Shown here: positions 50,045-51,637 of the stretch, in pieces
How positions within the stretch are numbered: the first letter of the stretch is position 1
Layout of the letters: each line of letters starts with the position of its first letter
Assembly (NCBI GenBank): GCA_947040455.1
Contig: CAMRBN010000002.1
Location: 11,856-75,855 of the forward strand
Source: an uncultured Mycoplasma sp.
GTDB lineage: Bacteria > Bacillota_I > Bacilli_A > Mycoplasmatales > Metamycoplasmataceae
Length of the DNA stretch: 64,000 nt
Direction of reading: 5' to 3'
Notes under the pieces: generated by a model
Databases searched by the model: none
What the model was told of the DNA's origin: nothing
Seen by the model: the letters and a program-made list of their open reading frames with translations, nothing else
Program-made: the position numbers and the translations under genes

Positions 50045-51637
50045 TTAAGAAAATGAGTTTTCAAAGTCTTCTAAAGTTGATAAATTTTTTCCAGGAAAAA
50101 TTTTAGAATCATATCCATAAATACCAATTATTTTATCTTCGGAATAAATAGTTGTATTATCTACTATAATTTTTGTTATATCAGATCCCTGCCCACTTGC
50201 GTGCAATATCATAACTAAAGTAGAATATGTAGAAAATAGGAATACCTCTTTATTGTTGGTAGGATCAGAAGCAAACACATCGTAAATAGAATAAAATTCA
50301 AAAGGAACTTTATTATCTAAAACTTGTATTCAACTACCATTATCACCAGGATATAAAACACCAATTCTTTTTTGTAAAGTTTCCAAAATATTTTCATCGG
50401 CAGGGTGACCCTTAAACCAAACAATTATTTTATCGCTTTCTGTTGGGTGTTTTGAATTAGCATAATTTTTAATTGCTACCAATGTTTTAATGTTGCTATC
50501 TATTCTTTCTTGAGTGTTCATTTTTCCACCTGAATAAATGTAATTTTTATTATTGTTCATTTGTTGTATATAAGAATCAGGATCAAAATCCTCTTTAATT
50601 TTCAAAATTTTTCTAAGAACTATTTGGTCAAAATCTTTCATAAATGTAATGATGTCCATATTTACAGAATTATATGGAGAGAAAATATCATTTTCTCCAT
50701 ATTTGTAATTTGTATTATTGTCTGGTCTATTCATTTCTGGAATAAAATCCGTTGTAGGAAGAAAGTATTTGGTTCTATTTGGATCTTTAAAGTCGATTGT
50801 CATCAAAGAAGTTAAAAACAAAAGTGCGTTATTTTTTTCTAAAAACACTTCCTTGCTTATTTGTCCATTTTTTACAGCTTGTCTCATTAGTCTGGCATTT
50901 GTATAATTTTTGTCTTCCGTGTTATATAAGTTATTAGAAAGCAAATACGCTTGTTTAAATAATTGACTAAAATATTCTACCGATTTTGTTCCATCTGAAA
51001 AAAAATTCATACTTTCCAATTGACCCAGCAAAATAAATTCATTATATATTTTTAATCTATCTAATGGAGAATTAAAACCTCTAATATACAACGATACTTT
51101 GGCCATATAAGTATAGTCATCAAAATAACCATCAACTTTCACGTTCCCCCCGAATTTATCATAAACATTTTGTAAAAATTCTAAATTATATGAATAAGTT
51201 GCGTTGTTTGACAAAACTGTTTCATTAAATTCATTATAAACAACATTAGGGAATTTTTTGAAGTAATCCATATCCAAATTCAGAAGATTAATAGCATAAA
51301 TTTCAATACGTTTCTCTGGATTTAATTCTAAAATTTTCATAATGTGTGCCACAAAAGAAAATCTTGTTATAACGCTAGCACCATTAATTTTATAAAATAA
51401 AACAGAGTCGGTTTTAGACTTCTCTATAGCATCTTGTAATAAAGCATCATGTGCGTATCTAGTTTTACTAATTTCTTCATCTTCTCTAGTTCAACCCATC
51501 AATTTATTATCGGTTTTAGTAGTTATGTTTTTTTCAATTATAACTTGAGCAAATCCGTAACTGCACAATGCAATTGACGATCCTATAACTAATGTTAAAA
51601 CAGATGGAATTATAAATTTATTCTTATTTTTTATCAT
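50045..51637 (-). CDS. Lipoprotein (about 530 aa) with bacterial sialyltransferase-like (GT80/HP-motif) signature
   Basis: ATG at 51635-51637 follows AGGAAG. The signal peptide plus Cys is MIKNKNKFIIPSVLTLVIGSSIALCS. The frame is continuous through TGA codons at 50330 and upstream. Ordered motifs are FFSDGT, YIYSGG, VWFKGHP, VPFEF and FSTYST. The gene boundaries are solid, but the family assignment is a hypothesis. Confidence 0.6.

Follow-up and report, generated by a model that had tools for sequence, protein, structure and literature searches.

A small mollicute family of predicted surface-anchored GT-B proteins, distantly related to bacterial sialyltransferases, with repeats capable of frame switching

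We analysed a stretch of 64,000 nucleotides from an uncultured Mycoplasma sp. (assembly GCA_947040455.1, contig CAMRBN010000002.1, positions 11,856 to 75,855), hereafter the window, and within it a gene for a protein of 530 amino acids, called here the GT-B protein after its predicted glycosyltransferase fold. Profile alignments and structural models indicate that the protein belongs to a family whose relationship to the bacterial GT-B sialyltransferases (families GT80, GT38 and GT52) is remote, yet clear. We propose that the GT-B protein is an outward-facing, membrane-anchored enzyme, a remote homologue of these three families, which performs sialyl-type transfer at the cell surface with a donor taken from the host, and that the system is switched by simple repeats. 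To this reading, taken jointly, we assign a probability of about one half.

Gene, fold and structural neighbours

The gene and the predicted layout of its product are as follows.
50045-51637, minus strand: gene of the GT-B protein, 530 amino acids (translation under genetic code 4; AlphaFold; Foldseek; hhalign)
N-terminal end of the protein: transmembrane segment or signal-anchor
Amino acids ~76-224: N-terminal Rossmann-like domain
Amino acids ~225-360: helical insertion
Amino acids ~361-530: C-terminal nucleotide-binding Rossmann-like domain

The reading frame is open under genetic code 4 only, because codons 49 and 436 are TGA (Trp in this code). In the alignment both codons face an invariant Trp in every homologue that covers them. 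The G+C content of the window is 27%, and its nearest relatives are labelled Metamycoplasmataceae or "uncultured Mycoplasma". Much of what follows refers to an alignment, A2, which contains 37 of the 42 family proteins found (identity to the GT-B protein 17-66%); all conservation counts out of 37 are taken from it.

An AlphaFold model built with a shallow alignment had a predicted local distance difference test score (pLDDT) of 71.6. With A2 the values were a pLDDT of 92.2 and a predicted template modelling score (pTM) of 0.89, strands and helices alternating along the chain. In this model the N-terminal domain has five strands (79-84, 111-116, 132-137, 168-173 and 209-213), preceded by a long N-terminal helix, and the strands of the second Rossmann-like domain are 364-369, 404-409, 437-439, 463-469 and 487-492. 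As modelled, the protein has the two-Rossmann architecture of GT-B enzymes. Comparison of the model with PDB structures by Foldseek gave the following ranking (template modelling scores are by target).
Ranks 1-20: all GT80 sialyltransferases (Pasteurella dagmatis, PmST1 of Pasteurella multocida, Photobacterium), E 9e-12 to 9e-9, score 0.57-0.63
Ranks 21-22: GT38 polysialyltransferase, E 5e-8 to 1e-7, score 0.50-0.52
Rank 23 onward: generic GT-B enzymes (OtsA, UDP-dependent glycosyltransferases, 2-epimerases), E 2e-6 or weaker, score 0.46 or lower

The GT80 alignments span ~470-490 columns at an identity of only 10-14%, and the first, weaker model produced an identical ordering. A preliminary description of this DNA, made from its letters, had proposed a GT-B fold akin to the solved GT80 enzymes, and the two Rossmann-like domains of the model and the GT80 structures at its first twenty ranks bear this out.

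Homology was also detected at the profile level. PmST1 served as the reference (PDB chains 2EX0/2ILV, identical over all 388 residues), together with a GT80 profile of 24 sequences (A3) and an alignment of the 15 closest relatives of the GT-B protein (A1). The hhalign comparisons gave:
A1 against PmST1: probability 51%, E 1.5e-4, 34 columns
A2 against PmST1: probability 89.5%, E 2e-6, 139 columns
A2 against A3: probability 96.5%, E 7e-10, 140 columns
The matched region is the nucleotide-binding domain.

Candidate active-site residues

In GT38, GT52 and GT80 enzymes the HP motif contributes the His that acts on the phosphate of cytidine monophosphate (CMP); the cytosine is bound by a Lys, the ribose hydroxyls are held by a Glu and the phosphate is contacted by two adjacent residues, Ser-Ser or Ser-Thr. 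The acidic base lies in a D/E-D/E-G-(S/T) loop (PMC5517516, PMC4202792, PMC7540698). The predicted counterparts in the GT-B protein are listed below with their conservation; the last four pairings with PmST1 are hhalign columns.
50987-50995, minus strand: D215-G216-T217, candidate catalytic base loop, comparable to PmST1 D141-G142-S143 and to E153-G154-T155 of the Mannheimia haemolytica polysialyltransferase (MhPST); D215 33/37, G216 35/37, T217 (T or S) 28/37
50528-50533, minus strand: S369-G370 (YSG), aligned with PmST1 T265-G266 at the end of the FTGT strand, nucleotide-binding domain; G370 34/37
50402-50413, minus strand: K409-G410-H411-P412, the HP motif, aligned with PmST1 K309-G310-H311-P312 (the His being the general acid on the CMP phosphate); K409 35/37, H411 33/37, P412 33/37, and the following R413 28/37
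50297-50299, minus strand: E447, aligned with PmST1 E338, the bidentate ligand of the ribose 2'/3'-OH; 35/37
50219-50224, minus strand: S472-T473, aligned with the phosphate ligands S355-S356 of PmST1 and S339-T340 of MhPST; S472 35/37, T473 32/37

In the model the candidate catalytic residues all lie where a strand ends or a helix begins: D215-G216-T217 follow strand 209-213 at the start of helix 217-223, and S472-T473 follow strand 463-469 at the N-terminus of helix 473-480. The helical insertion has conserved motifs of its own, specific to the family (D/E301-x-N303 and F319-x-P321-Y).

The preliminary description had read five motifs as an ordered GT80-like signature: FFSDGT (amino acids 212-217), YIYSGG (366-371), VWFKGHP (406-412, KGHP codons at 50402-50413), VPFEF (444-448) and FSTYST (468-473). 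Translation places them exactly there, and the HP motif, the ribose Glu and the YSG/FTG strand do match the corresponding PmST1 columns. Its phosphate-binding pair, S469/T470, was three residues off register, the pair that is both conserved in A2 and aligned with PmST1 being S472/T473. These motifs are not a product of chance, to judge from the retention of the key residues in 37 homologues at 17-66% identity, and a CMP-type nucleotide site with an acid/base pair is predicted to be intact in the family.

At least two members, P0045 (KIWYLPMSGQ) and P0047 (KLWLKPNANE), have no HP motif and may be inactive, adhesin-like derivatives. Such losses, together with the fusion of some members to BspA-type leucine-rich repeat (LRR) domains of the adhesin type, raise the question of whether the protein could be a non-catalytic surface protein descended from a glycosyltransferase. 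It might then be an adhesin, with which a surface location and phase variation would agree, or a lectin that binds sialoglycans or nucleotides. We consider this quite improbable, as the full catalytic set is kept in 32-35 of the 37 proteins, the GT-B protein of the window included, down to 17% identity, which would be unexpected for a scaffold that only binds.

Family and database searches

A word-indexed search of 5.8 billion proteins returned the 15 close relatives of A1, all of them named "hypothetical protein" and without a Pfam domain. An exhaustive search with a hidden Markov model (HMM) of 1.84 billion cluster representatives extended the family to 42 proteins (50% clustering); a homologue search based on A2 added nothing beyond the 15 close proteins, and searches of the PDB sequences with the family profile matched no chain. 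The named carriers are metagenome-assembled genomes (MAGs) of Metamycoplasmataceae and Mycoplasmataceae, "Mycoplasma sp." and the cultured Mycoplasmoides alvi (hereafter M. alvi), which has two paralogues. As far as these sequences go, the family is small, unannotated, with every homologue entered as a "hypothetical protein", and restricted to mollicutes, in a limited set of which, mostly MAGs, it occurs. Our literature searches found no account of a sialyltransferase-like protein in mycoplasmas.

The sole Pfam "hit" of the GT-B protein, DUF2729 (E 0.11), was set aside as noise. Members reach a single Pfam family, that of the GT38 polysialyltransferases (PF07388), with sub-threshold matches in 4 of the 37 (best E 4.3e-5). 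The match of P0052 spans the region from YSG to HP and scores 18 bits against a cutoff of 23.3 bits. The GT-B protein of the window has no match to PF07388, and no member exceeds the gathering score.

Predicted export and topology

The first residues of the GT-B protein, MIKNKNK, form a basic segment; a hydrophobic stretch, or helix, comes next and ends in SSIALC25-S:
51536-51616, minus strand: codons 8-34, N-terminal hydrophobic signal-anchor or possible lipoprotein signal, FIIPSVLTLVIGSSIALC25-S (hydropathy)

We take the lipobox rule to be that of PROSITE PS51257, with a small residue (A, G or S) at position -1, an invariant Cys after it, and a basic n-region and a hydrophobic h-region ahead of the box. 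The preliminary description had called this segment a lipoprotein signal. The basic stretch, the hydrophobic segment and C25 are indeed present, but the box I-A-L-C25 has a non-canonical Leu at -1, and among the 13 clade members with an aligned N-terminus Cys25 is confined to three (P0001-P0003), the others having Gly or Ser. For these two reasons the protein is more safely described as a signal-anchored, possibly lipid-modified ectoprotein.

Evidence for export is clearer elsewhere in the family. Canonical lipoboxes occur in 10 of the 37 members (for example ITAC-S, LVSC-S, LTSC-S, SMSC-G and SISC-N), and signal-anchors are present in other members. In P0034 and P0045 the BspA-type LRR domains separate the signal from the GT-B domain, and P0052 combines an N-terminal signal with a C-terminal transmembrane anchor. 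In the clade of the window the flanking charges of all ten members examined (+2 to +5 on the N-terminal side of the helix, -4 to +1 after it) fit an N-in/C-out orientation. The family is therefore predicted to be consistently exported with its GT-B domain facing outward, and the earlier placement of this domain outside the membrane stands as a prediction.

It could still be argued that the topology is mis-predicted and that a cytoplasmic GT-B domain, held by its N-terminal anchor, glycosylates a lipid of the inner face with a cytoplasmic donor. Almost all Leloir GT-B enzymes are cytoplasmic, and the gonococcal sialyltransferase Lst, once regarded as surface-exposed, has been relocated to the cytoplasm (PMC8092323). 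The lipobox of the GT-B protein is non-canonical, as stated, most clade members being without the Cys. A cysteine-depletion test of surface location was not significant across the family (p = 0.06); clade members have no Cys beyond the signal. We nevertheless regard a cytoplasmic location as very unlikely, because of the lipoprotein members, whose signals put the mature protein outside; the signal and C-terminal anchor of P0052, the LRR fusions and the charge distribution of the clade stand against it as well.

The three-gene cassette

The GT-B gene is preceded on its strand by two genes for small membrane proteins, which we call B and A.
52389-52396, minus strand: -10 element, TG + TATAAT, ~10 nucleotides upstream of ATG 52378 (conservation across loci)
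52022-52378, minus strand: gene B, first gene of the cassette, 118 amino acids from ATG 52378, three predicted transmembrane helices
51649-52020, minus strand: gene A, second gene, 123 amino acids, three predicted transmembrane helices

The stop codon of B lies 1 nucleotide ahead of the start of A, and a Shine-Dalgarno-like AGGAAG is found upstream of the GT-B start codon. The order B-A-GT-B on one strand recurs in each of the seven related loci whose sequence extends upstream of the GT-B gene (genetic code 4), despite differences in the wider flanks. Within the clade of the window, the GT-B gene is the third gene of a conserved three-gene operon.

A and B are paralogous (hhalign probability 96.5%, E 8e-10) and have conserved polar motifs. 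Neither matches a Pfam family or a transporter family, and only noise-level matches to holin, MARVEL and GPDPase_memb were obtained. The pair was rejected as a family-wide partner of the enzyme, since the HMMs of A and B match nothing near the distant members. A further small membrane protein, encoded after the opp operon of the window (9906-10364), shows a marginal similarity to A (E 0.0017 in a tiny local database), which is probably compositional.

The element at 52389-52396 is likely to be the promoter of the cassette, with a very short leader. A TGnTATAAT sequence stands 10-15 nucleotides upstream of B in five homologous loci (L003, L004, L005, L007 and L008); in the window the TG directly precedes TATAAT. 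A generic scan for promoters and terminators did not rise above background, so the promoter call draws on this conservation only. The same element designates ATG 52378 as the likely start of B, the alternative ATG 52390 overlapping the -10 box.

Simple repeats and possible frame switching

Simple repeats were found in coding positions where a change in unit number would alter the reading frame. Each repeat length given here is that of one sequence per tract.
52356-52371, minus strand: (CA)8 repeat, codons 3-8 of gene B (repeat scan, Tandem Repeats Finder, frame simulation)
M. alvi locus L015, 5017-5036: (AC)10 at codons 6-12 of P0032, within its lipoprotein signal; ON, 566 amino acids
M. alvi locus L016, 8000-8013: (TG)7 in the signal-peptide region of the second paralogue, just after a strong Shine-Dalgarno sequence and ATG (7943); OFF, stop after 35 codons

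Apart from (CA)8, no dinucleotide tract in the 64 kb reaches 6 units. Frame simulation places gene B in frame (ON, 118 amino acids) with 8 units, and yields products of 7-19 amino acids with 7 or 9. In P0032 of M. alvi, a gain or loss of one unit would reduce the 566 amino acids to 15-28. For the second paralogue, which lies ~10 kb from the first (GCA_000701785.1, contig JNJU01000001.1), simulation of (TG)8, (TG)5 or (TG)11 restores a protein of 576-580 amino acids, and this ON form begins with a proper lipoprotein signal (MFKFQLKK...FSTSC-S). The GTG start annotated inside this repeat looks like a workaround of the gene caller. Repeats also occur in mid-gene positions in very AT-rich genomes: G9 in the LRR-fused P0034 (L014 2167-2175) and (AG)6 in P0022 (L011 8228-8239).

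In 240 kb of locus sequence, all five non-AT repeats fall in genes of the family, which make up 14% of this sequence; leaving out the window, where the first case was discovered, the count is four out of four (p ~1e-3). The loci of the family thus carry repeats that, by frame simulation, are capable of switching.

Between the two M. alvi paralogues we also observed a poly(A)18 tract (L016 3382-3399, the same as L015 626-643), 62 nucleotides upstream of a GT2 glycosyltransferase gene (L016 3461-4597). This may mark a second variable glycosylation gene nearby, whose GT2 product might provide an acceptor in the form of a glycolipid.

Proposed activity and alternative readings

In the mechanism that we propose, the enzyme, working at the surface of the cell, would bind a nucleotide of the CMP type and catalyse the inverting transfer of sialic acid, or of another CMP-activated nonulosonate. 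H411 would act on the departing phosphate, and D215 would serve as the base. The sugar would be placed on a surface glycoconjugate of the mycoplasma itself, a glycolipid or the glycan of a lipoprotein. As we see no pathway that would make a donor, the host would probably supply it, as free CMP-N-acetylneuraminic acid (CMP-Neu5Ac) or from host sialosides by a CMP-dependent reverse or trans-sialidase route. A and B would probably pair in the membrane as a heterodimer and assist the enzyme. The repeats, through slipped-strand changes, would turn the system ON and OFF in the manner of other contingency genes for surface glycans.

Several results weigh against this proposal. Single-sequence searches of Pfam, NCBIfam and the PDB sequences gave no meaningful match for the GT-B protein. 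The GT80 HMM, PF11477, which all 27 true GT80 homologues carry, does not match it at E up to 10 and matches none of the 37 members at E up to 0.01, so that the membership of the PM0188 family (GT80) suggested in the preliminary description is not borne out by HMM. The N-terminal domain alone has no significant hhalign match to GT80: its best path does pair D215-G216-T217 with D141-G142-S143 (YDDGS) of PmST1, at a probability of only 10.6%. The first acid of the D/E-D/E-G motif is never present in the family, where A, S, P or G takes its place, and the TGTTxW segment that follows G266 in GT80 is reduced to SG. No difference in repeat length between strains was seen, each tract being represented by one sequence, and the (CA)8 tract is absent from the homologous loci L001-L008, including L001, which is 89% identical. 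No gene for CMP-sialic acid synthesis, CMP-sugars, sialidase or nan functions was seen in the window or in 15 further loci; for the window, where the preliminary description had likewise seen no other sialic acid metabolism gene, the survey was made partly with Pfam and partly by eye. A transferase of the Leloir type has no obvious donor outside the membrane, and the surface exposure of gonococcal Lst being disputed (PMC8092323), an extracellular enzyme of the sialyltransferase class would be unusual; Lst was downgraded as a precedent on this account.

A loose link to amino sugars or sialic acid is provided in the window by one gene only, a ROK-family sugar kinase-like gene at 24133-25017, recognized by eye only.

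The protein might keep the fold and the nucleotide site of the sialyltransferases and use another donor made by the cell itself, such as CMP-3-deoxy-D-manno-octulosonic acid (CMP-Kdo), CMP-pseudaminic or CMP-legionaminic acid, or an alcohol phosphate linked to cytidine diphosphate (CDP), which the three-transmembrane proteins of the clade would export or present. This would account for the conservation of the CMP ligands alongside the lack of conservation of the sugar-contacting TGTTxW, and for the co-transcription of a conserved paralogous membrane pair with the enzyme; Lst-type sialyltransferases can moreover use CMP-Kdo (PMC8092323). No nucleotide-sugar synthesis gene was found in the window or related loci, however, the distant members keep the catalytic residues without the small membrane pair, A and B match no transporter family, and the CDP-glycerol (TagF-type) and Kdo transferases are not ranked among the Foldseek top 50. 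We judge a self-made donor to be unlikely.

GT80 enzymes are known for CMP-dependent reverse and trans-sialidase activity (PMC8512710, PMC7540698), and by analogy a trans-sialidase or scavenging role is plausible for the GT-B protein. A related possibility is that it acts mainly as a hydrolase or scavenger, that is, a CMP-dependent sialidase or a CMP-sialic acid hydrolase that removes sialic acid or CMP from molecules of the host, for nutrition or for the unmasking of receptors, the bacterium itself remaining undecorated. Mycoplasmas generally depend on host nucleotides and sugars, which would fit such a role. Donor-hydrolase and sialidase side activities are documented for GT80 enzymes (PMC8512710, PMC7540698, PMC4202792), and mycoplasmas use exogenous glycosides at their surface (PMC12453214, PMC4657876). 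Against this reading, no sialic acid uptake or catabolism gene is near, D215, which would serve as the base for acceptor activation, is kept in 33 of the 37 members, and frame-switching repeats would be expected in genes for antigens or surface decoration more than in those for nutrient enzymes. A mainly hydrolytic function seems to us about as doubtful as a self-made donor.

The proposal of surface transfer with a host donor can be carried further, to the first sialylation system of a wall-less bacterium, run by a truly extracellular Leloir-type transferase. Catalytic amounts of CMP, assumed to come from surface nucleases, would lift sialic acid from host glycans, or host CMP-Neu5Ac would be used, for transfer onto the bacterium's own glycolipids or lipoproteins; the three-transmembrane heterodimer would present the acceptor or handle the donor, and the repeats would toggle the system for immune evasion. 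We offer this complete scheme tentatively and consider it, with all its parts, somewhat unlikely, though less so than the self-made donor or the hydrolase.

Comparison with known systems

Among known systems the GT80 enzymes (PmST1/PM0188, PdST of P. dagmatis, and the alpha2,3- and alpha2,6-sialyltransferases of Photobacterium) are the closest. They share with the family the GT-B fold, being its best structural match, and a homologous nucleotide-binding domain; the KGHP(R) motif, the ribose Glu and the phosphate Ser/Thr pair have equivalents, as may the (D)-D-G-S/T base loop, and many GT80 enzymes also begin with a Cys-containing signal (A3 consensus). The family differs in a protein ~140 residues longer, through its transmembrane anchor and a larger helical insertion, in the low identity, the missing PF11477 match and the unconserved first acid and TGTTxW described above, and in its host, a wall-less mollicute without a visible CMP-sialic acid pathway.

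The GT38 enzymes (NeuS/SiaD; M. haemolytica polysialyltransferase, 5WC6/5WCN), the second-best structural match, have an arrangement of K-x-H, Glu, Ser-Thr and E-G-T identical in type (PMC5517516), but they polymerize capsules in the cytoplasm, in association with the membrane, and capsule genes are absent here. The GT52 enzymes (Neisseria Lst/NST) carry the HP and D/E-D/E-G motifs (PMC4202792), and for a long time Lst was believed to draw on host CMP-Neu5Ac at the surface; on the other side, the Foldseek top 50 include no GT52 structure, there is no Pfam match, and the surface location of Lst is disputed, as noted (PMC8092323).

We place the protein among the bacterial GT-B sialyltransferases as a new variant at the level of a family, because the HMM tests for GT80 and GT38 fail and part of the N-terminal motif is missing. 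What sets the family apart is its mollicute host, its predicted extracytoplasmic anchoring, the three-transmembrane pair in one clade and the putative repeat-mediated switching.

For the switching, a parallel is found in Haemophilus influenzae, whose Lic3A is a cytoplasmic GT42 enzyme with a GT-A fold. The genes of this species for sialyl transfer to lipooligosaccharide, Lic3A and Lic3B, are toggled by repeats at the 5' end of the coding sequence (PMC6479036), and the (AC)10, (TG)7 and (CA)8 tracts would work alike. The repeats of Lic3A are tetranucleotides (CAAT), and the resemblance is one of regulatory logic only.

To our knowledge, mycoplasmas are thought to be almost devoid of glycobiology genes, and we know of no enzyme assigned to their surface glycosylation. 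Surface hexosylation offers a likeness in that mycoplasma surface proteins are glycosylated outside the cell from host-derived glycosides and not from the cell's own nucleotide sugars (PMC12453214, PMC4657876). That activity is retained in Mycoplasma genitalium and JCVI-Syn3A (PMC12453214), whereas the GT-B family counts 42 representatives in a limited set of mollicutes. With so narrow a distribution the family is probably not the general hexosylation enzyme of mycoplasmas, and this assignment was set aside.

If the proposed activity is correct, the family would be a concrete candidate for the mimicry or remodelling of host glycans in mollicutes, and wall-less bacteria may coat themselves with sugars of host type. 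It would also constitute a new glycosyltransferase family, so far without Pfam, NCBIfam or CAZy-type annotation, and a test case for a nucleotide-dependent transferase that works outside the cell. M. alvi, which can be cultured and carries one copy in the ON and the other in the OFF state, makes the idea directly testable.

Other features of the locus

A polytopic membrane protein gene is loosely associated with the cassette:
49103-49984, minus strand: DUF5378 protein (Pfam PF17349, E 1e-41)
It lies downstream of the cassette in the window and in L001 (7650-8534), upstream in L002 (4325-5137), and is absent at the other loci. As it adjoins the cassette in the three closest genomes only, it was rejected as an obligatory partner.

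In four contexts that differ widely from one another, namely the window (53316-56523), L009, L011 and L013, only a few kb separate a gene of the family from the arginine deiminase operon (arcA/argF/arcC); in one of them a member of 19% identity directly follows arcC. This proximity may reflect ancestral synteny or co-regulation.

Within the GT-B coding region, an inverted repeat with a 12-bp stem and a T-rich tail is present in antisense orientation (50672-50702, plus strand). It is the sole terminator-like match between 48900 and 52700, a number at background level.

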